Shown in pieces: positions 7,438 through 63,948 of a stretch of 64,000 bases of DNA; the stretch's first letter is position 1; every line of letters starts with the position of its first letter. The position numbers and the translations under genes are program-made. The stretch comes from Candidatus Woesebacteria bacterium. GTDB lineage: Bacteria > Patescibacteriota > Microgenomatia > UBA1400 > UBA1396. The notes below the pieces were generated by a model. That model was given only the letters and a program-made list of their open reading frames with translations. It ran no database searches and was not told where the DNA came from. The stretch lies in assembly GCA_021208605.1 (NCBI GenBank), contig JAJOJK010000003.1, positions 9,481 to 73,480 on the forward strand. Reading direction: 5' to 3'.

Positions 7438-7522
7438 GATTCTCCTCTTTCACAACTTCCTCAAGAAGGAGAATCCTGAACTGTATAAAAAAGAAGCTCC
7501 TCTCCGGAGCTCCTTTTCTTTA
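7438..7522. terminator. two hairpins forming a bidirectional intrinsic terminator between convergent smpB and a minus-strand gene
   Basis: GGATTCTCCT(7438-7447)...AGGAGAATCC(7468-7477) stem. GCTCC-tctcc-GGAGC (7497-7511) is followed by tccttttcttt on the plus strand and by T-rich sequence on the minus strand. Confidence 0.55.
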
Positions 7523-7549
7523 CATTCGTACAATCCGTACGCTACAGGC

Positions 7550-7810
7550 TTATGCGGCCTTAGCAGCTTTACGGAGGACTGGCATACCAGTGCGCTTGGT
7601 CTCTACGACCTCGTAGCCTTCTGGTACTTCGTCAATAGCACCTTCACGCTCATCACGAGCGAAGAAGAAGATGGGGCGGGTAATACCGTTTTTAAGAGTG
7701 ACCATCTTCTTGTGTAAGAAATAGGTCTGACCCTTAGAGTTGGTGTATGAGAACGCCATTCTCGGTCCTTTCTTTTGTTTTCCCTCTCTTGAGGTATCTT
7801 GTTTTACCAT
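7550..7810 (-). CDS. hypothetical small protein
   Basis: Track ORF of 86 aa. The likely start is at internal MAFSYTNSKGQTYFLH. No recognisable motif. Confidence 0.4.
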   Translation of the reverse strand: MVKQDTSREGKQKKGPRMAFSYTNSKGQTYFLHKKMVTLKNGITRPIFFFARDEREGAIDEVPEGYEVVETKRTGMPVLRKAAKAA

Positions 7811-7867
7811 ACTCGAGGTTCATCTCAAGGGCAAGAGGGAATTTTTTTCAATACCTGACTAACGACC

Positions 7868-8551
7868 TTAATAATTTTGTTGCAGGGTATTGCGTACTTG
7901 AGTAATCGACATCTTTTGGCCATCCAAAAAGAACGTTGGTGTCGAGTTCAAACGAAGCTGTTCAGCAGCCCGCAAGTCTTCTGCTACACGCTCTTTTACG
8001 GCTTGACCGACATAATCGTCTTCAAACTGCTCTCCATCTAAACCAAGCTCTACAGCAAGTCCTAAATAGTACTCACTCGCATCAGTCAACTCAGACCACT
8101 CGGCTTGGCGAGCAAACAAGGCATCGTGCATTTCCCAGAACTTGCCTTGCATGGCGGCGGCCTCGCTGGCCCAGGCTGAACTTTCGGCATTTGGGTGAAT
8201 AGTGCGCAGCGGGTAGTGTCGATATACAAACGCCACGTCAGGATACTCTTCGAGAATACTTGCAATTTGTGGCTCCGTTGCAGCACAAGCTGGACACTGA
8301 AAGTCAGAAAATTCTACCAGCGTGAAACGGGCACTTTCGGTGGCGCCTTTGAGGTGGGGAGTCTCGGTCACCAACTGCGACTGATCACTCACTTCTTGCG
8401 TGGCACCGCTAAAGTCTTGCGAAAGGAAAAAGCCAATTCCAAAAATTAAGACGAGTGTTCCCACAAGTGTGGCGATAAGGAGTTTTACATTTTGCATTCG
8501 TTTCCTTTCTTTCTGGGTTACGTCCTTATAAGTAAGGGACCAACCCTTCAT
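7868..8551 (-). CDS. thioredoxin-fold DsbA-like thiol:disulfide oxidoreductase (membrane-anchored)
   Basis: FSDFQCPACAAT CxxC motif and an N-terminal TM helix. The true start is probably M19 (8497), because the first 11 codons of the track ORF are the translation of the type C repeat. Confidence 0.7.
   Translation of the reverse strand: MKGWSLTYKDVTQKERKRMQNVKLLIATLVGTLVLIFGIGFFLSQDFSGATQEVSDQSQLVTETPHLKGATESARFTLVEFSDFQCPACAATEPQIASILEEYPDVAFVYRHYPLRTIHPNAESSAWASEAAAMQGKFWEMHDALFARQAEWSELTDASEYYLGLAVELGLDGEQFEDDYVGQAVKERVAEDLRAAEQLRLNSTPTFFLDGQKMSITQVRNTLQQNY
8518..8548 (-). repeat. hairpin repeat type C (AGGGTTGGTCCCT + TACTTATAAGGACGTAA) 5' of dsbA-like start
   Basis: The gene-sense strand reads AAGGGTTGGTCCCTTACTTATAAGGACGTAACCC. 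The same module occurs at 33151 and 57140 directly upstream of start codons. Confidence 0.55.
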
Positions 8552-8559
8552 TCGATTTT

Positions 8560-9321
8560 TTAAAAAAACTTTTCTAAATGAATATGTTTCTCTTCTACAC
8601 CTCTCTTCAGCAGAATGGCCTTGGAGTCTTCAATCATACTCGAACCGCCGCATAAGAAAAAGCCAGTTTTCGATATGTCGGCAAATTCGTGAGCCAGCAA
8701 GACATCGGTCACCCGACCACTATCGAGTGGCCAATTGGCGGGCGGCTGAGACAGCATGGGTCGAAACGTAAAGTTAGCGTGCTGCTCGGCAAGCTGCGTA
8801 AATTCGTCATACCAGAACTGGTGCTCGGCATGGCGGAGACCCCAGACTAAAGTGATTGGGCGCGTGTCAGCGTCATCCACTAACAAATCTTCAATCATGC
8901 TGCGAAATGGCGCGATACCTGAGCCAGTGGCCACAAACCACAATTCTGATTCTTCCTGACCCAACACGCTATCTAGTCGAGGCACTGTAAAGCTTCCCAC
9001 CGGCCCCATAAACTCAATTTCTGCGCCAAGTTCCAGACCGCCCAAATATCGTGTCGCTTCACCTTGCGGCCGTAAATCAACGAGCAACTCAATGGCGTGC
9101 TCCAAATCTGGTTCTGAAGCAATGGAGTAACTGCGACGATACGGAGTACCAGGAACCGTCAGTAAAACATACTGTCCGGCCGTAAACGCAATTCGCGGCG
9201 GCGCTGAAAGCTCAAAGTGGTACAACGTGTAGATGTCGTTATAGATCTGCTTTTCGGACAAACGCGCCGAAAACGTCTGGATACGCGGGGCAACTGTGGC
9301 GGCGGCAGGGGTATTTGTCAT
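8560..9321 (-). CDS. FAD/NAD(P)-binding oxidoreductase, ferredoxin-NADP reductase family
   Basis: RRSYSIAS (RxYS FAD-binding motif), GSGIAP (NAD(P)-binding) and the C-terminal EKF typical of the FNR-like family. Confidence 0.7.
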   Translation of the reverse strand: MTNTPAAATVAPRIQTFSARLSEKQIYNDIYTLYHFELSAPPRIAFTAGQYVLLTVPGTPYRRSYSIASEPDLEHAIELLVDLRPQGEATRYLGGLELGAEIEFMGPVGSFTVPRLDSVLGQEESELWFVATGSGIAPFRSMIEDLLVDDADTRPITLVWGLRHAEHQFWYDEFTQLAEQHANFTFRPMLSQPPANWPLDSGRVTDVLLAHEFADISKTGFFLCGGSSMIEDSKAILLKRGVEEKHIHLEKFF

Positions 9322-9403
9322 AGTGGACAGTATAGCAAGTTCTCACGTTTCTCGAAGTCAAGAATCTACTCGGATGAGAAATATTGATGAATCAACACAT
9401 AAT

Positions 9404-9451: not shown

Positions 9452-9589
9452 AAAGACAGAGTTGTTTTCACTATAGGTTTTTCTTATTATCGAGCTGATG
9501 CAGTCAAAAAAAAACTATAAGCTTCAGAAATTTCACTGCAATTTTACCTAGTCATATGAGTCAAAAAACAATCTCTCTCTGTTCCATCC

Positions 9590-49938: not shown

Positions 49939-51747
49939 CTACGCCACCCGAATTTGTTTGAGTTCATCGAGTGTAGTGGCCTGCTCAACGGACTTGTCAT
50001 CACGGAACTTGACTAATCTCGGAAAACGCAGCGCAAGCTTCGCTGTATGTAGTGGCGACTGCGTAATTTCGTCGGCTGCTACCTCAACCACCAAACCAAG
50101 TGGAACCAGCACATCCGGTTGTAGTTGATCAGGAATAACAGTTTGGAAATCATAATTTTTTATAGATTTTGATTGCTTTTCGTGCAGAGAGTCGCAACGC
50201 ACTTTCATTTCTCTCCACTGATCATCGGTAAGGCCAGTCCCAATCTTGGCGAGAGTCAAAACAGAATCATTTTTTGAGTCGAGAATGCCAACCAAAAAAG
50301 CGCCAATACCAAACTGAGTTCGCTTACCGCGGCCATAATAATATCCTAAAACAATCGCATCAATCGTATCGGTAAGCTTGGCCTTGCTTCCTTCTTTTTC
50401 TTTGAGCTTCACCCAATTGAACGATTGTCGACCAGACAAGTACTCACCGTGGGATTTTTTAATGACTGCACCTTCCAACCCAGCTGTCAATTGTTCTTCA
50501 TGAAAAACTTTTAGCTCTATGGGGTCGGAAGTTGTAATGTATGGTGCAACAACTACTGTATTTGTTTTTGCAGAAATTATGTGTTCGATAATTTCTTTCC
50601 GTTGATCGAGTGGGATATGCATTTGCGACTGGCCGTCTTTGAACAATACGTCGAATACAAAAAACCGCAAAGGTATCGTTTCCGCCATTTCCGCAACTCC
50701 ATGCTTGCGTTTACGTTTGATGGTCGTCTGGAAATTCACTAGCTGATCTGTCTCGGGATCATAGCCTACGGCTTCGGCATCAAATATAACGGATTCTACA
50801 GGGAGTTCGAGCAAATCTTGTTTCAACTCTGGAAACATTTCTGAGTTTTCATCCAAATTTCGCGTAAAAGTTTTCACTGTTTCGGTTCGTGCATCCCAAT
50901 GAATTTGGACACGCGTACCATCGTACTTGGGTTCGGCAATCACCTTTCCCATCTTTTCGATCATCTCTTCAGTGGTTTTTAAGCGATCACAAAGTGCCGG
51001 CAAAATAGGAGTCCCAAGAGCAACATCGAGTTTTCGCGCAGCCTCGATACCGCCAGAGCGAACGTGCTGTGCAATCACACCAATATCTGGGTGACGCTGA
51101 TAGACTTCGTCGAGTGCATGCCGCTGCGATTTGTCACCTGCCATATACCATGACAGAGCATCGAGAATAGTTTTGTCGGAAACACCCAAACGCATGTCTC
51201 CCAACAAGATACGCGCCACGTAACGAGCCGACAGCGGCTGAAGCTGACGCAAAAGTTTTGCCACCACATGGATCTTCTCTTCTTGACTGCCCTCACCGCT
51301 GATTTCGGTGATTTGCCACAGGCGATCAAACACATCGGGCACCGTGAGGTCGGCGAAAGTGGAGTTGTGACTCGTAGTTACAAGTTCTTTGAGCACTTCT
51401 TCGGCCAGCAATCCGATATCACCGAGCCGTTTATAGCGCTTGGACAAAAGTTTTTTTTGATCTTCTACAGCAACATTATTTACCGCTTCACCAAAAAGAT
51501 TCTCTGCTAACTCCGCTTTCAGTGGCTGCAACTCGGCCAACGAGTACAGCATAAACTGCACCCCAAACTGAAACTGCGGATTCCGAAAATTCGGACCCAT
51601 TTGTCCGAGCAGTAAATAGAGATACTTGTCGATTTCTTCTGCCGCGATTTCCGAGAACATCTGAGCCAACAACTCGGTCTGCGCGAGCTTTTTGCTGGTG
51701 TCTTCTAGCGGCTGTAAGTATTTTTCGGCGAACTGGTGGAACTGCAT
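49939..51747 (-). CDS. lig: ATP-dependent DNA ligase
   Basis: KYDGTRVQIH adenylation motif I. 602 aa with an OB-fold C-terminal domain. Confidence 0.85.
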   Translation of the reverse strand: MQFHQFAEKYLQPLEDTSKKLAQTELLAQMFSEIAAEEIDKYLYLLLGQMGPNFRNPQFQFGVQFMLYSLAELQPLKAELAENLFGEAVNNVAVEDQKKLLSKRYKRLGDIGLLAEEVLKELVTTSHNSTFADLTVPDVFDRLWQITEISGEGSQEEKIHVVAKLLRQLQPLSARYVARILLGDMRLGVSDKTILDALSWYMAGDKSQRHALDEVYQRHPDIGVIAQHVRSGGIEAARKLDVALGTPILPALCDRLKTTEEMIEKMGKVIAEPKYDGTRVQIHWDARTETVKTFTRNLDENSEMFPELKQDLLELPVESVIFDAEAVGYDPETDQLVNFQTTIKRKRKHGVAEMAETIPLRFFVFDVLFKDGQSQMHIPLDQRKEIIEHIISAKTNTVVVAPYITTSDPIELKVFHEEQLTAGLEGAVIKKSHGEYLSGRQSFNWVKLKEKEGSKAKLTDTIDAIVLGYYYGRGKRTQFGIGAFLVGILDSKNDSVLTLAKIGTGLTDDQWREMKVRCDSLHEKQSKSIKNYDFQTVIPDQLQPDVLVPLGLVVEVAADEITQSPLHTAKLALRFPRLVKFRDDKSVEQATTLDELKQIRVA

Positions 51748-51774
51748 GGTTAGTCTAGTGTAGCAGACTTGGTA

Positions 51775-51797
51775 GAGGGACCGACCCTTAGGCCTAG
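51775..51797. repeat. REP type A (GAGGGACCGACCCT-TAGGCCTAG)
   Basis: Canonical copy. Confidence 0.65.
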
Positions 51798-51849
51798 AAA
51801 AATAAAATGGCGGACAAAAAAACTCACCAACTCAAAAAGAAACACCGTT

Positions 51850-52959
51850 CTACTCCAACGTGTAATGCACGCCCTTCGTCACACCATGTTTTTTAACGAG
51901 ACCCTTATCAATTAAGTCTTTCAAGTCGCGCAAAATGGTGTCCGTTGAGATCATCGGCAAAATTTCATTCAAGTCACTACTGGTGGCTTTGCCCTGTTCT
52001 TGCAAGTACTCCATCACGATCAGCTGACGCTCACTCAGGGCAACCTGATGTCCCAACTTTTGATGCAAGCGAAAATCTTGCGACAATTTCAATACTTGCT
52101 GCTTGATGCGATCCAGCTCAATCGCCAAACCGTAGGAAAAGTACTCCAGCCAATAAGTCATGTCATTGTCTTTACTATTTTGCACCGAACGAATGGCCAG
52201 ATAGTAGTTTTCAATATCGTTGTCGAAATACTGTTCAAGAGAGAAAAATCTTTTGACATCAAAGTCTTCCGCGTACATGAGCGCCAACGCCATCGCACGA
52301 GCGGTCCGGCCATTTCCTTCAATAAACGGGTGGATGTTGACGAGTTGATAGTGCGTCACAGCCGCTCGGAACACAACGTGCTGGCGACGAGCAGCATCAC
52401 TATTGAGCCACTCCAAAAACTCCTTGACTAGACCAGGGACCGCTTCTGGTTCCGGCGGTCGGTGCACAACTTGCCCAGACTCGACACCACGAACAATCAC
52501 TTTATGATCGCGATACGTGCCGCACTGATCCGGAGCAATAATGCGATGCACCGAAATTGAGTGCAGCGTTTTCAGCATATCTTCGGTGTACTTCGGGCGC
52601 TCGCCTTCTTGCAGGCTTTCTCCCCAGGAGTTTATCCAGTCGAGCACGGAACGATAGTTAATTATTTCTTGAATATCTCTGGCCTTGCCGACAATACCGG
52701 CGCCGCTGGCCACTTTTTCTGGGTCGGTCCCTGGAATACTGAGGACTCGCTCCGCCTGTTCTTGGCTGAGTTCATTTCCTTCCAGGCGAGTGCCGTGGTA
52801 CACGGTCCGGACCATGGCTTCTTCTTGAAATTTGGCTTCCCAGGCGGGAACGATGGGGGCATTTTTAATAACTTCACGCGACGCCTCGATGCTCGCGATG
52901 TACTGCAGCAGATTGTTAGAAATCTGAAAATTGGGACGAAACGTGCTCATACTGCACAC
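51850..52959 (-). CDS. Fic family protein
   Basis: HPFIEGNGRTARAMALAL Fic motif. C-terminal winged-helix-like region. Confidence 0.85.
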   Translation of the reverse strand: MCSMSTFRPNFQISNNLLQYIASIEASREVIKNAPIVPAWEAKFQEEAMVRTVYHGTRLEGNELSQEQAERVLSIPGTDPEKVASGAGIVGKARDIQEIINYRSVLDWINSWGESLQEGERPKYTEDMLKTLHSISVHRIIAPDQCGTYRDHKVIVRGVESGQVVHRPPEPEAVPGLVKEFLEWLNSDAARRQHVVFRAAVTHYQLVNIHPFIEGNGRTARAMALALMYAEDFDVKRFFSLEQYFDNDIENYYLAIRSVQNSKDNDMTYWLEYFSYGLAIELDRIKQQVLKLSQDFRLHQKLGHQVALSERQLIVMEYLQEQGKATSSDLNEILPMISTDTILRDLKDLIDKGLVKKHGVTKGVHYTLE

Positions 52960-54144: not shown

Positions 54145-55178
54145 TCACTCAAATAAAGAAGGATAGCCTTCCTCGACGGTAGTGATGATGGCTTGCGAAC
54201 GCGTGGCGGCATCTTGAATGAGTTCTTGGTTCATTTCGTCGAGCTCGGAAAAGACGTCGTCGAGCAGAAGCACTGGCAGCTCTTGTCGTTTTTGTTCGAT
54301 GTACTGCACTTCGGATAACTTCCACCAGGCTAACGCGAGGCGTTGTTCACCGCGAGATCCGTAGCGCTCAATATCGCGCCATTCGCTGCCGCGTTTGACT
54401 CTCACGATGACATCGTCTTTGTGGGGACCGACTAAGGTGTAACCCGTGGACAGCTCGGCGCGTTCGTATTTTTTGATGCGTTCTTCGGAAATGATGGAGT
54501 GGTCGTACTCAACTTGGTACTCTTCTTTGAAACCTGGTTGCTGGTCGAGCCAGTGAAGGAACTCTGCTCTGGCCTGGTGGAGTATTTCGCCATTGTCGAT
54601 GAGAAGCTGGTCCCAATAGAAAAAATCTTGGCGTTGTGCTTCGCCTTCTCGCAGTGCTCGTAAAAGACGATTCCGCCGCCGGAGGGCTTTGTCGTAGTTT
54701 TTGCGCGCTCGTCGGTACTCGATGGAAACTTGGTCGAGTAAGGTGTCTAGCAAGTGGCGGCGCGCAGTGCCGCCACTCTGAAACAACTCCATATCTTCTG
54801 GCGTAAACACTACCGTAAGAAGTTGCCCCGTGGCATCGCTGGCTCGACGACTGACACCGTTGACGCGATAGAGACGCTTATTCGTTTTTTTTGCCTTGGA
54901 GAATACCGTGGGTAAAGAGTTGTTCGAGTTTGGTTTCGTCGCCTTTTTTCGTCTTGGAATTTGGCCATGACACGAGCGAGTTCTTCATCCCACTCGATCA
55001 GTTCATCGGTTTGCTTGGCGCGCCAGGATTGGCCGGTGGACAGGAGGGCGAGAGACTCGATGAGGTTGGATTTACCGGAGCCGTTGGGGGCGGTGAAAAC
55101 ATTCAGGCCTGGCTCAAACGACCAGGTGTGGTCGGAGATGTTGCGGAAGTGTTGGAGCCAGAGTCCAGTAATGATCAT
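54145..55178 (-). CDS. recF: DNA replication/repair protein RecF, frameshifted at a T6 tract (plus-strand coordinates)
   Basis: N-terminal Walker A APNGSGKSNLIESL (track ORF 54810..55178) and the remainder (track ORF 54145..54810). The frames join if the T6 at 54944-54949 were T7. Confidence 0.75.
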
Positions 55179-55326: not shown

Positions 55327-57126
55327 CTATCTCTCCAAAACCGCCATAAAAGCCTCTTGCGGCAAAGAAACTCGACCAATTTCCTTCATCCGCGCCTTGC
55401 CTTTTTTCTGTTTCTTCAGCAACTTGTCTTTCCGAGTCTGGTCACCACCATACAGCTTCGCCGTCACGTCCTTACGGAAGGCCTTGACCGTTTCGCGAGC
55501 CACAATCCGGCCCCCAATCGTGGCCTGAATCGGCATCTCGAACTGCTGACGAGGAATCACTTCCTTCAATTTTTTCGCAATCGCGCGGCCAATCGACTCA
55601 GCCTGATCGCGCACCACAATTTGTGACAATGCCTCAATTTCTTCATGCTGCACCATGATAGATAGCTTCACAGCATCAACCCACTCATAGCCAGTCACCT
55701 CGTATTCCAGAGAAGCAAAACCAGAAGTCACCGATTTCAGCATGTCATGAAAATTCACAATCAGTTCAGCTAAAGGCATGTCGTAGACAGCCCGTACGCG
55801 CGTGCCGACATCAATCACCTCCAATAAATTACCGCGCCGGCCTTCGCACAACTGCATCACCGCGCCTAAGTAATGACGGGGTGTAAAGATAGTCGTGCGC
55901 GTCATTGGTTCATAAATCGATTCGATCATGGCCGGATCCGGGAGTTCGCTGGCGTTGTTGACGCGAATGCGTTGACTGGGTTCATCGCCAGTACCACGCA
56001 CTTGAATTTCATATGGCACGGAAGGCGAAGTCGCCACCATCTCCAGGCCAAATTCGCGCTCCAAACGTTCTTGAACAATTTCTGCATGCAAAATACCCAA
56101 AAAACCTACACGCATCCCGTTTCCGAGAGCGTGAGAGTTTACGCCTTGGTACTGCAAAGCAGCATCGTGGAGCTTTAATTTATTCAGAGCATCGGTCAAA
56201 AGCATGAAGTCGTCGCCATCAATCGGGTAAAATTCCAAATAGACCATAGGTTGAGGCTCTTTGTAACCGGGTAACGCCGTTACCTTGTCAATGGTATGCG
56301 CCTGGGTAATCGTGTCACCCACTTTCACCAAATCGACATCTTTCATGCCGGTAGCAATATAGCCTACTTCGCCTGCTTTCAGAGACTCTACTGGACGGCG
56401 ATCCGGGCCAAAAAAGCCAATTTCCGTTGGCGTGAAGCGCTGGTGTTGCGCCATCAGCATTAAGCTTTCGCGCTTGAGCTCGCCTTCCATGACTCGCACG
56501 TAGGCAATCACGCCTTGGTGCGTGTCATACAAAGAGGTAAACACAAGTGCGCGGAGGGGTTCAGCAGCTGGTTCCGGCGCCACGGGCAATCGAGTGACGA
56601 TCGTATCCAGAATGGCATCGATATTCTGACCCGTCTTCGCCGACACGGCCACAATGTCTTCTTCTTCAAAATCGAGCGTCTCCATAAGTTCGAGTGTGGT
56701 CGACTCAACATCGGCCACTGGCAAATCAATTTTGTTCAAAACCGGAATAATCTTCAAACCGAGCGCTTTAGCTTTTTCGTAGTTGGCTAAGGTTTGCGCC
56801 TGCACACCTTGCGTAGCGTCGACTACCAACAATACACCTTCACACGCGGCTAAAGAGCGAGAAACTTCATAACTAAAGTCCACGTGGCCAGGTGTATCAA
56901 TTAAGTTAAGCTGTACTTTTTCGCCCGTTTGCGGGTGTTTCCACTCCATGCGAACTGGCGCTAGTTTAATGGTGATACCGCGCTCCTGCTCGATCGGATT
57001 CGAGTCCATCAAGCGCTCTTTGAACTGGCGCTCAGTAATCGTGCCGGTGCGCAGCAACAACCGGTCGGTCAAGGTAGTCTTGCCGTGGTCAATGTGCGCG
57101 ATGATCGAAAAATTACGAATTGGCAT
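55327..57126 (-). CDS. lepA: elongation factor 4 (LepA)
   Basis: MPIRNFSIIAHIDHGKTTLTDRLL GTPase G1 motif and the characteristic LepA C-terminal domain. 599 aa. Confidence 0.92.
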   Translation of the reverse strand: MPIRNFSIIAHIDHGKTTLTDRLLLRTGTITERQFKERLMDSNPIEQERGITIKLAPVRMEWKHPQTGEKVQLNLIDTPGHVDFSYEVSRSLAACEGVLLVVDATQGVQAQTLANYEKAKALGLKIIPVLNKIDLPVADVESTTLELMETLDFEEEDIVAVSAKTGQNIDAILDTIVTRLPVAPEPAAEPLRALVFTSLYDTHQGVIAYVRVMEGELKRESLMLMAQHQRFTPTEIGFFGPDRRPVESLKAGEVGYIATGMKDVDLVKVGDTITQAHTIDKVTALPGYKEPQPMVYLEFYPIDGDDFMLLTDALNKLKLHDAALQYQGVNSHALGNGMRVGFLGILHAEIVQERLEREFGLEMVATSPSVPYEIQVRGTGDEPSQRIRVNNASELPDPAMIESIYEPMTRTTIFTPRHYLGAVMQLCEGRRGNLLEVIDVGTRVRAVYDMPLAELIVNFHDMLKSVTSGFASLEYEVTGYEWVDAVKLSIMVQHEEIEALSQIVVRDQAESIGRAIAKKLKEVIPRQQFEMPIQATIGGRIVARETVKAFRKDVTAKLYGGDQTRKDKLLKKQKKGKARMKEIGRVSLPQEAFMAVLER

Positions 57127-57170: not shown

Positions 57171-57297
57171 GCAGGTTTCTCCTGAATGCTCTATTATACG
57201 GTTTGTTTTTTCTCTTGCAGGAGAAGTTTTTTTAGCTTCAAAAAAGAGGTTGATGAAAACCACCAACCTCTTTATCTAGTTCATTACTCTTGTTCTT

Positions 57298-57705
57298 CTA
57301 CCGAATTTGCGCCGAAAAACTATGCGTCTCTACACCACCCTCAATTACTTGGGTGATCAAAATACGAGAGTCGTTAAAATCGATATTCATGGGTAACCCA
57401 GCCACTACTTCGATTTCACGATTGGCAAAAGACAATCGGAAGCCGTTTTCTATTACACTCACTTCAAAGCTGATATTTTTCTCATCATCACCGGTGTAAT
57501 TGACTGGTTCTGGTTTTCTGTCAACAGTTGAGGCATACACATAGTCCCATTTACGGCGAGCTAATTCTTGAATCTTAGGGAAAACATCCAAAATTCTTTC
57601 TTGCGAAATTCCTTCTGAATTTTCATTTTTCGCATCTTTTTCATTTCCGTTAGCCATTTGTTTCTCCTTTTTTTGTTTAGCGAGTTGCAGGTGTTGCTGG
57701 ATCAT
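57298..57705 (-). CDS. hypothetical small protein (array member 5)
   Basis: Part of five tightly packed co-oriented small ORFs. Lys/Glu-rich N-terminus, beta-rich C-terminus. Confidence 0.45.
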   Translation of the reverse strand: MIQQHLQLAKQKKEKQMANGNEKDAKNENSEGISQERILDVFPKIQELARRKWDYVYASTVDRKPEPVNYTGDDEKNISFEVSVIENGFRLSFANREIEVVAGLPMNIDFNDSRILITQVIEGGVETHSFSAQIR

Positions 57706-58054
57706 ACCCTTCCGTCGTTAAAATAAAGCGACGAACTTTTTTAGGATACATAACCTCTACAATTGTTTGATAGTCTGAAAAGATAGAAACGTTTGCATAC
57801 AAACCAGACTTTATTCGTAAAGGAATATCAATATCGTTTCCAGCACGATCTACAAAATTAATATGGATTTTGCCATTTTCCATGTTAAGAACAGAAATCT
57901 CACCTTCCGCCTCAATCTGCATATTTCCTAAATCAGGCCCTGAAAAAATGGTTACCCCCACATGACCCTGCGCAAATTTTTCAAATCTCGCACGAATGTT
58001 CTTAACAGTTTCTGCCGTTAGAGGCGTTGTGATTCCTTGTTCAGGTGATTTCAT
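57677..58054 (-). CDS. hypothetical small protein (array member 4)
   Basis: Shares an (I/L)xVxNMxNxK motif with member 3 (ISVLNMENGK vs LQVMNMRNEK). Confidence 0.45.
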   Translation of the reverse strand: MKSPEQGITTPLTAETVKNIRARFEKFAQGHVGVTIFSGPDLGNMQIEAEGEISVLNMENGKIHINFVDRAGNDIDIPLRIKSGLYANVSIFSDYQTIVEVMYPKKVRRFILTTEGYDPATPATR

Positions 58055-58065
58055 AGCATTCCTTA

Positions 58066-58398
58066 CTATCTGTGTTTATTTTTTTTCGACAAAATGTGGG
58101 TTATTGATTTACCATCTTTGGTTACTACAACCTGTATTGCATTTTCTTTTTTTAAAAGGGAGACAGAGCTCTTACTATCAATACTGAAAACTGGTTTCTC
58201 ATTTCGCATATTCATGACTTGAAGTGTGCTACCCCACACTTCGACGGATAGTTGGTTAAAATCACCCTTATGTATGACGCCAGATCCTAGACTGTCGGTC
58301 ACCACCACCCATTCACCAGATTCAATATCTTCCAGCTCAAGAGCCACCTGCAAAGCGACAATGCGACTCATCTCGCCGTGATCTGTCCAGTTTTCCAT
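58066..58398 (-). CDS. hypothetical small protein (array member 3)
   Basis: Predicted beta-rich. Putative paralog of member 4. Confidence 0.45.
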   Translation of the reverse strand: MENWTDHGEMSRIVALQVALELEDIESGEWVVVTDSLGSGVIHKGDFNQLSVEVWGSTLQVMNMRNEKPVFSIDSKSSVSLLKKENAIQVVVTKDGKSITHILSKKNKHR

Positions 58399-58409
58399 TG
58401 GTACTTTCT

Positions 58410-58760
58410 TTAGCGATTTCCGCCAGTTTTCGTAAAGGTATAGGAGAACGTTTTGTATTCGCCATCAAAAACACCACTAATGCTCATGGTTACGATATCG
58501 CCATCAGGCCAAATAAAAATCGAGGAATCTCTGGGAATAATCAACTCATGCTCCAAACCACACATCAAACGCAAGGCATTTTGACTCGCATGATTGAGAC
58601 TGAGTTGTACATTTTCAACTGGAAACGGTAACTTATGCCCACTCTTCCACTGACCAGACCAAGTATCATCTCTTCCAAAAGCAGCAAGAAAATCTGCAAA
58701 AATGGCATTTTTTGTATCTGGTTTAACAATGCGTGCTTGGTGTTCTGGTCCTAATGACAT
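58410..58760 (-). CDS. hypothetical small protein (array member 2)
   Basis: 116 aa, no motif. Lies 12 bp from member 3. Confidence 0.45.
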   Translation of the reverse strand: MSLGPEHQARIVKPDTKNAIFADFLAAFGRDDTWSGQWKSGHKLPFPVENVQLSLNHASQNALRLMCGLEHELIIPRDSSIFIWPDGDIVTMSISGVFDGEYKTFSYTFTKTGGNR

Positions 58761-58880
58761 GTTGCCCTCTTTTTTGCATTTCCCCCGCGGAGTAAACGGC
58801 TATTGTACCCAACCAAGACAATATGCCAAGGGCGAAATGTGCAGAAATGGTCTCAAAAAATGAGATTTCCTTGAGATTTC

Positions 58881-59351
58881 TTACAGTGAGCGAGTCAGTG
58901 TCAGTACTATATCTTGCTGTAAACCAGACGCATTCGTATACATGAGTGTGACCACCAGCTCGCCGCGAGCCGACATATAGGCACAGTACACGCGGCTGTC
59001 TACATTAAAAGCAATAGTCTCTAAGTCTCTTCGAGAGTTTTCATCGATAATTGTCAGCGTCATCGTTGGAGTTTTAGGATGATCTTGTGCTGCTACGTTG
59101 AGGGTAACTTCTTTCCCTTTGTAATCACCATTTGTAATTCGACCCAGGGTTTCATCGCCCAACGAAGTCTTCTCTGCTCGCCAAATGTGTTGAGATGGCT
59201 GGCCTTGAAAAAAATGGGTAATCTCTCGCACCTGTTCCGCGGTAAGACCAAGAAACTTACCCTCAAAAACCTCAGTAAAGGCAATGAGCTTTGGTGAACT
59301 CTCAGGATCATTGTCGTAGTTTTTTCTACCATCTTCTCCATTACGAGACAT
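58881..59351 (-). CDS. hypothetical small protein (array member 1)
   Basis: 156 aa with beta-rich repeats (TLNVAAQD, TMTLTIID, LVVTLMYT). Confidence 0.45.
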   Translation of the reverse strand: MSRNGEDGRKNYDNDPESSPKLIAFTEVFEGKFLGLTAEQVREITHFFQGQPSQHIWRAEKTSLGDETLGRITNGDYKGKEVTLNVAAQDHPKTPTMTLTIIDENSRRDLETIAFNVDSRVYCAYMSARGELVVTLMYTNASGLQQDIVLTLTRSL

Positions 59352-59457: not shown

Positions 59458-59886
59458 ATGAACCTCTCTGTGCGCACGCAACGTTTTGTGTCGAGTGTTT
59501 TTTCTGCGACAGCATTCTCTCTGTACTTTGCCGAATCAGCGATGGCCCAACTTGGCGCCTGGACAGAAGCAAATGGCTGTGTGTTCATTGCGGAGGACGT
59601 TGGCGCAGTCGCTACTATACAAGGAGTAGAGTGTCTCGTGCGCAACGTCTTGGCTTCAGCCACGACTTTTGTTGGCTTGGCCGCGTTTGTCATGTTGATT
59701 ATTGGTGGATTCCTTTACTTAACTTCCGGCAGCAACTCCAAAGGTACCGACGCCGCCAAACAGACGATCACCTACGCCATTATTGGTATTGTGGTGGCCT
59801 TGATGGCCTTCTTCCTCTTGCAGTTCGTCGCGATTGTGACTGGCGCACGAGGATTTTTGGAGTTTAATTTGAATTTGGGGAATTAA
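59458..59886 (+). CDS. VirB2/TrbC-like T4SS pilin
   Basis: Signal peptide then two hydrophobic helices separated by a short polar loop (..FVGLAAFVMLIIGGFLYLTSGSNSKGTDAAKQTITYAIIGIVVALMAFFLLQFV..). Size 142 aa. Confidence 0.55.
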   Translation: MNLSVRTQRFVSSVFSATAFSLYFAESAMAQLGAWTEANGCVFIAEDVGAVATIQGVECLVRNVLASATTFVGLAAFVMLIIGGFLYLTSGSNSKGTDAAKQTITYAIIGIVVALMAFFLLQFVAIVTGARGFLEFNLNLGN

Positions 59887-60070
59887 GCATTTTCAAGGTA
59901 ACCTTTCTGATCAATTACCTCAAGAAAGGTTACCTTAAGTTAACCCTTCTTGAGGAAAACAGAAGCGAAGGTAACCTTCCAAAGCGTTTCACAACCCACA
60001 TTGCCGTTTCCGCATCCAGGCAGTACAATACAAACGTTACGCATCAGCGCGCAGCCGAGAAAAATTCTCT

Positions 60071-62005
60071 TTGCGTAACAAGCATATGAAGCACTGGGTA
60101 ACCAAATTAATCGCACTTGTTTTTGTTCTCGCCCTCGGGGCCCAGCTTTTTTTGACACCTGCACAGGTTTTTGCCCAAGCTCCTACAACCCAATATGATG
60201 ACGAACGCTGTCTCGATCCCGAATTTGCAGCCGATCCCGCGAATGCCGCCCTGTGTACAAGAACCGTCGGCGGCTCCGAAATTAGCGCCGAATCTATCCG
60301 CCAAGCGATCAACTCTCCCACCCCAAACTTAGCCAACACAACCGCCTACGTTTTCTATACGATTTCGATTCTTTTAACCGGAACGTTTGATCCGAGCTAC
60401 GCTGGCGAACAGGCCTCGGTGCCGGTCAGTACCTTTGCTGATGCTACCGATCGTGGCGGCGCACTCGGCGGAATTGGCTTTTTAATGGGCCAACTCGTGG
60501 CCAATCCGCCCGCCTCGGCGCAGTACTACATGGCGGACCTCGTCAACAACGCCAGATTCACCGGTTCACCGGTTTACGCCCAAGGAATTGGATTCGGCGC
60601 GCTGAACCCCATTCTCGGCACCTGGAAAGCCTTCCGTGACGTGGCGTATTACCTCTTAACCATCATGTTCTTGGTTACTGGTTTCCTCATCTTGATTCGC
60701 CATAAGATCAGCGGAAACGTGGCCGTAACCGTGCAAAACGCGTTGCCAAAACTCGTTATTACACTGATTCTCATCACGTTCTCTTACGCCATCGCCGGCC
60801 TTGTGGTCGATATCATGTTCTTGGCGTTGTTCTTTATTATTAGTATTTTTGGACAGTATATTTTCTTGCCAGATGCTAACTTTGCCACTGGGGCTCTTAT
60901 GAGCAGAGAATATGTTGGACTCAGTGAAATTGCTTTCAATACGCACATTTTTGAGTTTATGGTCGGCTTTATCTTCAGTGGAACAACCTGGAAAGCGGCG
61001 CAATCGGTCGGTCAAATAATGACCCAAGCCATCGGATCCTTCCCATTACTCGACGTCATCGCTGGTCAAGGCTCTATTCTTCGCCCGCTCTTCAATGAAA
61101 TTATCAATGTTTTTATCGTCCTGATTTTGGCCATTGCCCTCTTTATTGCCATGATCCGCACCTTCTTCTCTTTAATAATGTCCTATGCCGGATTTGTAAT
61201 TAACGTTGTGCTGAGTCCGTTTATCTTGCTAGTTGGGGCGGTTCCTGGAAAAGATCCCTGGAAAAACTGGATTAAGAATCTTATCGCTGGACTGGCTCCA
61301 TTCGTAGTCGCTATCTTTATGATCTTCATGAGTTTAGCACTCACCGGGCAACAAACCCGTGATGGAATCGGTTACAAAGCCGATGGTGGACAAGTTGAAG
61401 GACTCCGGCTTCCGCTCATTACCGGCGGAGTAGCCAGCGCGGATGCGTTCATCGGAATTTTGGCCATGGGCTTCATGCTCTTAATGCCAGAGGCCGTGAA
61501 GATGACGAAGAAGTTTATGCAGGTATCTGGTGGCATATTCGAAGAACAAAAAGATGCCGCTTTGGCAAACTTTAAACAAGGTGTGAGCGGAAACAAATAT
61601 GTACCAGGTGCTGGAAAGGTCGCTAAAGGCGCGGCTATTTCAGCTGGACTAGGACTGGCTGGTGGAACCGCTGGCGCTATCATTGCTGGTAAAAATGCGT
61701 ATGCTTCTTCACAAGCTGAGGGTCATGGGAGATTCCGAAGTAGTGTCAATGCTGCTTTAAAGGGAACAGGCGGAGGTTTAGCTGGTGGATTTGCTGGCGC
61801 CACAGCCTATCCAGCTGCTACAATGGGAGCACCTGTGGTTAGAAATGTTAAAAAAGGCGTTGAATACGTCAAGAAATTTGATTCTCCGGCCGCTGACTTA
61901 CTGCGTGCTCTTGAGCTGAACAGGGCTAAACAAAGAGCGCAACAAAAGGGAGCTGAAGAGGAACAGCAAGTTTCAGTTGATAAACCTGAAGTAGATACAT
62001 TTTAG
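60071..62005 (+). CDS. VirB6/TrbL-like polytopic membrane protein with Gly-rich C-terminal region
   Basis: Signal peptide, 6 or more TM helices in the central region, GxxG-rich C-terminal tail. Ends QVSVDKPEVDTF. Confidence 0.5.
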   Translation: MRNKHMKHWVTKLIALVFVLALGAQLFLTPAQVFAQAPTTQYDDERCLDPEFAADPANAALCTRTVGGSEISAESIRQAINSPTPNLANTTAYVFYTISILLTGTFDPSYAGEQASVPVSTFADATDRGGALGGIGFLMGQLVANPPASAQYYMADLVNNARFTGSPVYAQGIGFGALNPILGTWKAFRDVAYYLLTIMFLVTGFLILIRHKISGNVAVTVQNALPKLVITLILITFSYAIAGLVVDIMFLALFFIISIFGQYIFLPDANFATGALMSREYVGLSEIAFNTHIFEFMVGFIFSGTTWKAAQSVGQIMTQAIGSFPLLDVIAGQGSILRPLFNEIINVFIVLILAIALFIAMIRTFFSLIMSYAGFVINVVLSPFILLVGAVPGKDPWKNWIKNLIAGLAPFVVAIFMIFMSLALTGQQTRDGIGYKADGGQVEGLRLPLITGGVASADAFIGILAMGFMLLMPEAVKMTKKFMQVSGGIFEEQKDAALANFKQGVSGNKYVPGAGKVAKGAAISAGLGLAGGTAGAIIAGKNAYASSQAEGHGRFRSSVNAALKGTGGGLAGGFAGATAYPAATMGAPVVRNVKKGVEYVKKFDSPAADLLRALELNRAKQRAQQKGAEEEQQVSVDKPEVDTF

Positions 62006-62250: not shown

Positions 62251-63948
62251 CTACTTACTTCCACTCAAGTTGGAGAAAATAGCCTCAGTAGGTTTAGTAA
62301 AGTCTTCGGCTTTGATCTGCAATCCAACTAAATAGTAGAGTTCTAAAAGTGTTTCTCCATCAAAAACATTTATCTGTTGGATGTCAGGGACTTCCATTGT
62401 TAAGAAACTTGAATCGATTGTCGGATCACCTTTTCTGAGTCTTTCCAAGAAAACAGAGGCAGTTGTCAGAGAAGACTCTAATGGTCCTTTATCAACACGA
62501 TTTCGGTGTCGAGTTACAAAGTCATTTGCAAAGAACATACCATGCAAGGTAAGTTTGTCACGCGTCAAGTCAGCAATAGTACTTCCACCATACCAGAAGA
62601 TGTGATGTCCTTTGGCAATAAGTTCTCTCTTTATTAAGAGATCTGGATAAATTCCCAAAGAACCACGAGCTGTTTCACCTTTCGCCGCAGCTACGTTTAC
62701 ATCTTCCACAGTTGGAGCGTCGCGGCGAACCTTAATAGTCATTGTCTTTTGCGGATAATTGATAACCGAACCGTCTGATCTTCGACGCATTTGAGTCGGA
62801 ACTACGGCTGTATTAATGTCTATCACTTTTTTATTCATATCTGCCATAGTCATCCACCGGGTTAATTCAGGTGGACTGGTGTACCACCATTGATTTACAC
62901 GTGTAGAATAATCAGGCGATGTTTTAAAGGTTCCCTTCATTGTTGATTCAAAATGCCCTGAAGTGTCATTTCCATTTTCATCTACTACTCGAATGCGAAT
63001 ATATTGACCAGTAGGATTAATTTCATCGATAAATGGAATCCCGTCAGCATATCTAGCCTTCTCTTCTCTAGAAGGAGGTTGACAAGCCATAAAAGGCATT
63101 GCGTCTGTTTGTCCAGCATACTTATGTGCATATTTGATATAAGTGGTCCAGTTATCAAAGTATTCGGCATTCGCCTTGGTGGGCTCATTTTGGCGATAAT
63201 TAATGGTTCCACTGCTATTCGGATCCATGCTTGAACGTTTTTCTAAATCAAACTTAGCAACAGAAGTCATTGTTTTAATGTGATTTCCATATGCTGCTGA
63301 GGGGTTGTCAGGGAAAAGGTCCCACCGAAAAGTTGGATCTGCAAAAGTTTTTACAGTATCAGGTGAACTTCTAAATCGTTGTGTCCAAGTCATACCGTCA
63401 TAACCGTAAAAATCAAAGTAAGGCATAACGTACCCTTTGACAATACCAAAAATATTTCCAGGCAAAGTAGTGTTGTTAAAAGCTCCATTGTACGTATCTT
63501 TATAGATATAAGGAGCTGCAGTTCCAATAGAAATTCTGTGCAAAAGCTTTAATCCAGACGGAGAACCAGGCAATTTTGATCCAGAAGTTCGATTGATATC
63601 TTGAGATCCAGATTCATTTGTAATTTCCGTCAAACTAAGAGCTGTTAGGCCAGCGAATCGCGCCGCCATATCACTCCATGTACCTCTTGTAGAGTCATCT
63701 ACAGATTTAGCAGACACCATCTCAACAACTTCATCAAAGTTCTTCTTACGAGTGGCTGTTAAAGCACCAGCTTTTTCGGCATATACCCACGGATGCAATG
63801 ATCGAGATTGTGTTGTTGTTCCTACTACACTAACAGGAATAACTTTAGGTGATCGTTCACCATTCTTCAGCAATAATTTAGAACCAGTATGTCGTTCGGG
63901 CGCTTCACTGGTTCCCATTTTTTCTTCCAATCGTTCACCTCTTCGCAA
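62251..63948 (-). CDS. hypothetical large aromatic-rich protein (565 aa)
   Basis: Long open frame with no TM, signal peptide or recognisable motif. Confidence 0.45.
   Translation of the reverse strand: MRRGERLEEKMGTSEAPERHTGSKLLLKNGERSPKVIPVSVVGTTTQSRSLHPWVYAEKAGALTATRKKNFDEVVEMVSAKSVDDSTRGTWSDMAARFAGLTALSLTEITNESGSQDINRTSGSKLPGSPSGLKLLHRISIGTAAPYIYKDTYNGAFNNTTLPGNIFGIVKGYVMPYFDFYGYDGMTWTQRFRSSPDTVKTFADPTFRWDLFPDNPSAAYGNHIKTMTSVAKFDLEKRSSMDPNSSGTINYRQNEPTKANAEYFDNWTTYIKYAHKYAGQTDAMPFMACQPPSREEKARYADGIPFIDEINPTGQYIRIRVVDENGNDTSGHFESTMKGTFKTSPDYSTRVNQWWYTSPPELTRWMTMADMNKKVIDINTAVVPTQMRRRSDGSVINYPQKTMTIKVRRDAPTVEDVNVAAAKGETARGSLGIYPDLLIKRELIAKGHHIFWYGGSTIADLTRDKLTLHGMFFANDFVTRHRNRVDKGPLESSLTTASVFLERLRKGDPTIDSSFLTMEVPDIQQINVFDGETLLELYYLVGLQIKAEDFTKPTEAIFSNLSGSK

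Follow-up and report, generated by a model that had tools for sequence, protein, structure and literature searches.

A fast-diverging orphan gene array between lepA and a type IV secretion pilin gene in a Candidatus Woesebacteria bacterium and its possible link to the secretion apparatus

Introduction

What are five small genes of no recognizable family doing between lepA and a pilin gene of a type IV secretion system (T4SS)? The question is raised by a 64,000-nucleotide stretch of a Candidatus Woesebacteria genome (assembly GCA_021208605.1, contig JAJOJK010000003.1, forward-strand positions 9,481 to 73,480; hereafter, the window). A first-pass annotation of this DNA had singled out a tight array of five open reading frames (ORFs) and had proposed immunity proteins, anti-defence or defence cargo, or structural subunits such as shell or encapsulated proteins as possible identities. 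Here, we describe the array as a lineage-restricted orphan tandem family that would evolve by birth and death and would have a T4SS-linked role. This statement as a whole stands, in our estimation, evenly between right and wrong, and its structural and evolutionary part alone is very probably correct.

The T4SS clusters of Patescibacteria are encoded on the chromosome close to dnaA, have no relaxases and contain highly diverged pilin arrays, and T4SS-like machines are essential for epibiotic growth in Saccharimonadia (PMC12102498). The VirB2-like pilin arrays of Patescibacteria, which are abundant in Microgenomatia, consist of 2–11 small tandem paralogues with a mutual identity of ∼25% (PMC12102498).

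Results and discussion

The array contains five protein-coding genes

The array is formed by five co-oriented ORFs on the minus strand upstream of lepA, as the first-pass annotation had described. In the order of transcription, the array and its spacer and terminator are arranged as follows.

58881..59351, minus strand: g5, 156 aa; first gene of the array and possibly a transcription unit of its own; C-terminus TRSL
58761..58880, minus strand: g5–g4 spacer, 120 bp; promoter-like site, and AU-rich hairpin directly after the g5 stop codon
58410..58760, minus strand: g4, 116 aa; C-terminus TGGNR
58066..58398, minus strand: g3, 110 aa; C-terminus NKHR
57677..58054, minus strand: g2, 125 aa; C-terminus PATR
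57298..57657, minus strand: g1, 119 aa from the ATG that follows AAGGAG; C-terminus AQIR; the longest ORF starts at 57705
57237..57273, minus strand: intrinsic terminator after g1; 13-bp stem, 5-nt loop and U6

All five ORFs are genuine protein-coding genes. In a 3-periodic Markov coding model trained on 37 long window ORFs, the own-frame scores of g5, g4, g3, g2 and g1 are +0.134, +0.085, +0.081, +0.148 and +0.195 bits per codon, respectively, compared with 0.145 ± 0.089 for the training genes (leave-one-out) and −0.17 for shadow ORFs, and each of the five scores negatively in all five other frames. Given the local base composition, the chance of 110–156 stop-free codons is 2 × 10⁻⁵ to 5 × 10⁻⁴ per ORF. 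Shine–Dalgarno-like sites are observed upstream of four of the genes (g5, g4, g2 and g1), and gene callers predicted the array genes in six assemblies, with g5 at 156 aa in each of them. The array has a GC content of 0.39–0.45 (0.45 in g5) and a third-position GC content (GC3) of 0.28–0.41, compared with 0.50 ± 0.04 and 0.51 ± 0.085 in the other genes.

The identical region is present in six public contigs, which derive from the NCBI metagenome-assembled genomes (MAGs) GCA_021208155.1, GCA_021208925.1 and GCA_021209405.1 and from three Logan assemblies. The window differs from these assemblies through indels only, with 0 mismatches, and thus the region offers no polymorphism and the window carries long-read homopolymer errors. 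The length of an A-run near position 58150 determines the length of g3, which encodes 110 aa in the window and in assemblies L002, L004 and L006 and 96 or 91 aa in L001, L003 and L005; the 110-aa version is the one that retains the C-terminal hairpin and terminal arginine of the family. The reading of the five ORFs as pieces of one long gene broken by long-read indels was rejected because each unit has its own ATG and stop codon, four with a Shine–Dalgarno-like site. Moreover, the units are also separate in the related array described below, and the six assemblies agree except for homopolymer indels.

The genes are separated by spacers of 120 (g5–g4), 11 (g4–g3), 11 (g3–g2) and 19 bp (g2–g1). 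The earlier claim that gaps and overlaps do not exceed 30 bp therefore holds for the last three spacers but not for the first one. The true start of g1 is most likely the ATG at 57657, which yields a protein of 119 rather than 135 aa and was picked by gene callers in five of the six assemblies, and with this start the reported g1/g2 overlap disappears. The g5–g4 spacer contains a sigma-70-like sequence (TTGGCA-16-TACAAT at 58829..58802; 10/12 positions, a consensus match only) that may act as a promoter. The terminator after g1 has a centroid energy of −17.7 kcal/mol (z = −2.9 against shuffled sequences). Given the promoter-like site and the terminator, the array is likely transcribed as g5 alone followed by a g4–g1 operon that is insulated from lepA. 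Rfam and repeat scans of the region yielded noise only.

The array genes are orphans confined to two sister species

The array proteins are labelled 'hypothetical protein [Candidatus Woesebacteria bacterium]' at NCBI and match nothing significantly in Pfam, PHROGs, PADLOC or NCBIfam (E ≥ 0.01 throughout). The Pfam and NCBIfam scans returned nothing at E ≤ 1 apart from noise, the best PADLOC match was an 11.9-bit partial match of g5 only (E = 0.011), and the best PHROGs match had an E-value of 0.09. No homology to housekeeping families was found. Against PDB sequences, the concatenated proteins were unmatched, and a family profile gave two non-significant matches (E = 2.7 and 3.6). When the five proteins were concatenated and compared exhaustively with 1.84 billion cluster representatives by phmmer, only the five self entries were retrieved. 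Likewise, a profile built from nine sequences (five from the window and four from the related array) retrieved self entries only, from two source species, among 5.8 billion proteins. Two scans of viral contigs, for g5 and g3, retrieved no relatives. The family profile also detected no more members in the window, in the 10 kb beyond it, or in 85 related loci that were collected by scanning GTDB species genomes by alignment and by individual homologue look-ups. By these sequence searches, the array genes are orphans without homologues outside the two species.

Synteny was compared across 12 related Microgenomatia loci (L007, L008–L013 and L087–L091). The gene order consists of DNA ligase, Fic, carbohydrate kinase, RecF and lepA, followed divergently by the pilin gene and genes for a 639-aa protein and a ∼1000-aa protein, on to dnaA. 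The pilin gene is conserved beside lepA in all 12 relatives. In 11 of them (L008–L013 and L087–L091), the array is absent and the lepA–pilin gap spans only 7–373 bp. L007 (CAYUUK010000003.1) is the sole relative with a comparable slot, which measures 1.86 kb and contains small minus-strand ORFs. Thus, the array is confined to two sister species, the window species and that of L007, and the slot is closed in all other relatives examined; conservation in relatives, on which the first-pass annotation would have drawn, extends to L007 only. Small ORFs near the pilin genes of L010, L013, L087, L088 and L090 were considered as family members and rejected as unrelated, mostly membrane proteins.

The window species, L007 and L091, which are the three closest species, are about equidistant from each other, as follows.

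LepA identity: window–L007 91.8%; window–L091 91.7%; L007–L091 87.3%
Fic identity: window–L007 93%; window–L091 92%; L007–L091 91%
Pilin identity: window–L007 73%; window–L091 73%; L007–L091 66%
639-aa protein identity: window–L007 63%; window–L091 63%; L007–L091 64%

L091 lacks the array and has a lepA–pilin gap of 117 bp.

The two arrays show faint but consistent protein similarity

The L007 array (7471–9330) contains four genes. One copy is frameshifted (ORFs 8594–8764 and 8373–8639), and another has an in-frame TAG at 8092–8094; the disruptions may reflect real pseudogenization or artefacts of the MAG consensus. The window and L007 share no DNA similarity across the slot, and the flanks are 72–78% identical. 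Synonymous sites are saturated between the two species (dS, the synonymous divergence, is ∼3–4 or not computable), and therefore weakly constrained sequence would be expected to show no DNA similarity in the slot.

At the protein level, a faint but consistent similarity suggests that the two arrays are homologous. g3 and the last L007 gene (7515–7934) are reciprocal best non-self matches in a set of 10,142 stop-to-stop ORFs; they align over 99 aa at 26% identity and have a Smith–Waterman z-score of 6.6. The top match of a hidden Markov model (HMM) of the five window proteins among 9,531 ORFs of relatives is an ORF from the L007 slot (E = 0.49); an HMM of the four L007 proteins, which were badly aligned by MAFFT, matched nothing in the window. 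Smith–Waterman z-scores against shuffled sequences average 1.11 for 36 family pairs versus −0.19 for 108 control pairs (Mann–Whitney P = 1.2 × 10⁻⁵). Cross-species pairs average 1.73, the best values being 6.6, 4.7, 4.1 and 4.0; g1 scores 4.0–4.7 with two L007 genes, and g5 scores 3.2 with the first gene of the L007 array. The lower similarity of within-genome pairs than of cross-species pairs fits old duplications that preceded the split of the two species. In a leave-one-out analysis with a C-terminal profile, g1, g2, g3 and g4 ranked 38, 32, 53 and 3 of 10,133 (approximately the top 0.5%), and g5 and the L007 genes ranked lower. The array evolves far faster than its neighbours.

The array proteins are predicted to share an N-terminal helix and β-strands

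The five proteins are acidic (pI 4.7–6.1) and have polar N-termini. They show no sign of a transmembrane segment or signal peptide, with a maximal Kyte–Doolittle 19-residue mean of ≤1.08, in agreement with the cytoplasmic appearance noted earlier. The [IL]xVxNMxNxK motif that the first-pass annotation had found in members 3 and 4 is present in g3 (LQVMNMRNEK, residue 59) and g2 (ISVLNMENGK, residue 53), which are the third and fourth genes in the order of transcription. In a MAFFT alignment of the nine proteins from the window and L007, the common elements are an N-terminal amphipathic helix, often followed by a tryptophan residue, a central hairpin that includes the motif, and a C-terminal hairpin. 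The C-terminal tails are mildly basic and unstructured. Seven of the nine proteins as called end in arginine, or eight when the TAG is read through, against a background of 6.4%, and the arginine codons differ.

An AlphaFold2 (AF2) model of the five concatenated proteins has a mean confidence (pLDDT) of 33.8, and only its secondary-structure pattern is usable. In this model, each protein consists of one N-terminal helix followed by 3–8 strands; g5, g4 and g2 each have an additional short helix, and g5 combines a long polar N-terminus, one helix and β-strands. The β-strand-rich character proposed earlier is thus reproduced for all five, albeit at low confidence. An AF2 model of g3 with a six-row family alignment reached a pLDDT of 59 and a predicted TM (pTM) score of 0.52 and displays an eight-strand meander over residues 29–104. 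Foldseek found no match to the g3 model in the PDB (best E = 0.26) or BFVD (best E = 0.096), with TM-scores of ≤0.33. The members are thus predicted to share a common domain architecture of an N-terminal helix and strands. The suspected diverging paralog family is upheld weakly and by non-standard evidence (architecture, terminal arginine, Smith–Waterman z-scores and leave-one-out ranks), and it spans five genes rather than the two that carry the motif. The suggestion of shell or encapsulated subunits found no backing, with no bacterial microcompartment (BMC) or encapsulin domain, no fold match and no enzyme cargo nearby.

Proposed history and role of the array

We propose that the array predates the split between the window species and the L007 sister species and that a slot for it opened in the otherwise tight, divergent lepA–pilin intergenic region. 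Thereafter, the family would have undergone birth and death through duplication, extreme sequence divergence, reshuffling and pseudogenization. Its products would be small, soluble proteins with a polar and probably disordered N-terminus, one amphipathic helix, a β-meander of 5–8 strands and a short polar tail, in most cases with a final arginine. These proteins may act with the T4SS-like host-interaction apparatus, either as translocated cargo or as binders or neutralizers of such cargo, and an arms race with hosts or competitors would drive their rapid divergence. The link to the T4SS, in our view the most economical reading, is suggested by the divergent pilin-operon neighbour, the lack of Sec signals, the very fast evolution and the unstructured, slightly basic, arginine-ended tail. 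Taken alone, this T4SS-linked function is tentative and rather doubtful.

Several observations weigh against this proposal. The same operon of the pilin and the 639-aa protein occurs without the array in 11 of the 12 relatives. The array thus does not follow the T4SS genes across relatives and does not belong to the core of the system, and its link to the apparatus is circumstantial. The adjacency to the pilin gene may only reflect a permissive insertion site, and neither VirB4 nor VirD4 was recognized in the 20 kb examined. The two disrupted L007 copies could indicate a family that is decaying rather than adapting. Statistically, the case for paralogy within the genome is weak (mean z = 0.5), and no family pair reaches a conventional E-value. 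The terminal-arginine and motif observations are post hoc, and the structural models, at pLDDT values of 34 and 59, have low confidence and lack a fold match.

Three other explanations deserve consideration. The proteins could be an orphan immunity array against cytoplasmic toxins from competitors, possibly delivered via the same kind of T4SS, with the cognate toxin gene lost or located elsewhere; toxin–immunity arms races would then drive their duplication and diversification. Like the orphan immunity arrays of polymorphic toxin, type VI secretion (T6SS) and contact-dependent inhibition (CDI) systems, the array consists of tandem, small, acidic, soluble and highly diverged paralogues that vary in presence between sister species and include pseudogenized copies, and a secretion apparatus adjoins it. 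However, a search of ∼10 kb to each side found no toxin, effector, polymorphic-toxin domain or toxin-tip cassette, and the proteins show no known immunity domain of the Imm, SUKH or SMI1 type. Known immunity families are usually widely spread horizontally, but the array family shows no cross-taxon spread and is without relatives among about 15 billion proteins. An immunity cluster, as the first-pass annotation had suggested, is therefore unlikely. Alternatively, the array could be what is left of selfish DNA that arrived by horizontal transfer (for example, phage or mobile cargo including anti-defence genes), landed in a permissive intergenic site and is now decaying, with no role in the cell. 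The orphan status of the genes, GC and GC3 values 2–3 standard deviations below those of the genome's genes, the array-free sister species L091 and the disruption of two of the four L007 copies are in line with this explanation. The borders of the array, however, show no integrase, transposase, flanking repeat or tRNA, and its flanks are conserved housekeeping and T4SS genes; the non-significant PHROG and PADLOC matches and the lack of viral-contig relatives also fail to support the earlier idea of anti-defence or defence cargo. Furthermore, given the saturated dS between the two species, five open frames and a recognizable architecture could not have persisted in the window species in DNA free of constraint. 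We thus regard a selfish remnant as improbable.

Finally, the genes could encode lineage-specific housekeeping or regulatory accessories, such as adaptor, chaperone-like or stress proteins, whose position next to lepA would be fortuitous. The genes share the orientation of lepA, their products look cytoplasmic, and uncharacterized small proteins are abundant in genomes of the candidate phyla radiation (CPR). On the other hand, a strong terminator parts the array from lepA, and both the divergence of the array (≤26% identity versus 92% for LepA) and its loss in a sister species are untypical of housekeeping genes, so that little credence can be given to such accessories.

Comparison with known systems

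With regard to the proposed T4SS-linked family, one of the closest parallels is the VirB2-like pilin array. Both are tandem sets of diverged small paralogues at a chromosomal T4SS locus, here ∼10 kb from dnaA and beside a PF18895 pilin gene. Unlike pilin arrays, however, the five proteins lack a PF18895 or TrbC domain, a transmembrane helix and a signal peptide, and their genes are transcribed away from the pilin gene and occur in two species only.

T4SS effectors of host-associated bacteria, including Dot/Icm and VirB/D4 substrates, carry C-terminal, positively charged signals. To our knowledge, no translocation-signal model exists for the Patescibacterial T4SS; the only signal-like features seen in the array proteins are the terminal arginine and the mildly basic tail. 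The array resembles effector repertoires, as generally known, in that its genes are orphan, low in GC and rapidly evolving and its proteins lack Sec signals and have unstructured, mildly basic, arginine-ended tails. In contrast to typical effectors, the array proteins are much smaller and lack an arginine-rich consensus; no nearby gene was recognized as encoding a coupling protein, and most relatives with the same apparatus do without the array. If the array proteins were substrates, small β-meander, arginine-tailed proteins would be exported into a host cell or competitor, with each species having its own set. That the array provides the first recognizable candidate substrates or cognate neutralizers of the relaxase-less chromosomal T4SS of Patescibacteria is, in our judgement, a long shot.

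The family is new at the sequence level and limited in reach, and its practical value is limited for now because it is known from two uncultivated species only. If it is T4SS-linked, these species-specific, fast-evolving, signal-less small proteins are concrete cargo or partner candidates for the T4SS-like machines of Patescibacteria. If it is merely decaying foreign DNA, the lepA–pilin junction is still a hotspot of gain and loss, and the array illustrates the extent to which the 'dark' small proteome of CPR bacteria is very young.

Neighbouring genes and additional features of the window

The array is physically linked to a T4SS gene and lies, together with the pilin operon, ∼10 kb from dnaA. 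Its immediate neighbours are as follows.

55327–57126, minus strand: lepA, downstream of the array on the same strand
59458..59886, plus strand: VirB2-like T4SS pilin gene (PF18895, E = 2.5 × 10⁻⁸; 34.3 bits against a cutoff of 26.6)
60086..62005, plus strand: gene for a 639-aa polytopic membrane protein, located after the pilin gene and co-transcribed with it; 'VirB6-like' is a label only

The pilin gene is divergent from the array at a distance of 106 bp and is a conserved neighbour that does not belong to the array family. The VirB2 part of the previously described VirB2/VirB6-like module is thus confirmed; the VirB6 part is not, as the 639-aa protein has no Pfam match. Homologues of this protein number 214, and those with a named source all belong to Patescibacteria or Microgenomates. 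Nested palindromes are located at 59895–59958 between the pilin stop codon and the gene for the 639-aa protein (14-nt arms, 100% complementary; 22-nt arms, 86% complementary) and could form an attenuator or terminator that sets the ratio of pilin to membrane protein. The ∼10 kb from the pilin operon to dnaA (window 62251–63948 and beyond; L002 12794–19886) encode proteins of 959, 419, 253 and 650 aa, all Pfam-negative. The position of the ∼1000-aa protein (959 aa in the window) is conserved in all close relatives.

On the lepA side, recF (window 54145–55178, minus strand) is split into ORFs of 122 and 221 aa but is uninterrupted, at 343 aa, in three further assemblies of this strain. Farther downstream, an ATP-dependent DNA ligase (602 aa) adjoins a Fic-domain protein (369 aa) at window positions 49939–52959 on the minus strand, and both are syntenic in close relatives. 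At the opposite end of the window, a tRNA-Ile (anticodon TAT) is predicted at 2741–2815 on the minus strand inside the 5′ end of a TTG-start ORF (1592–2893), the start of which is thus probably over-extended.

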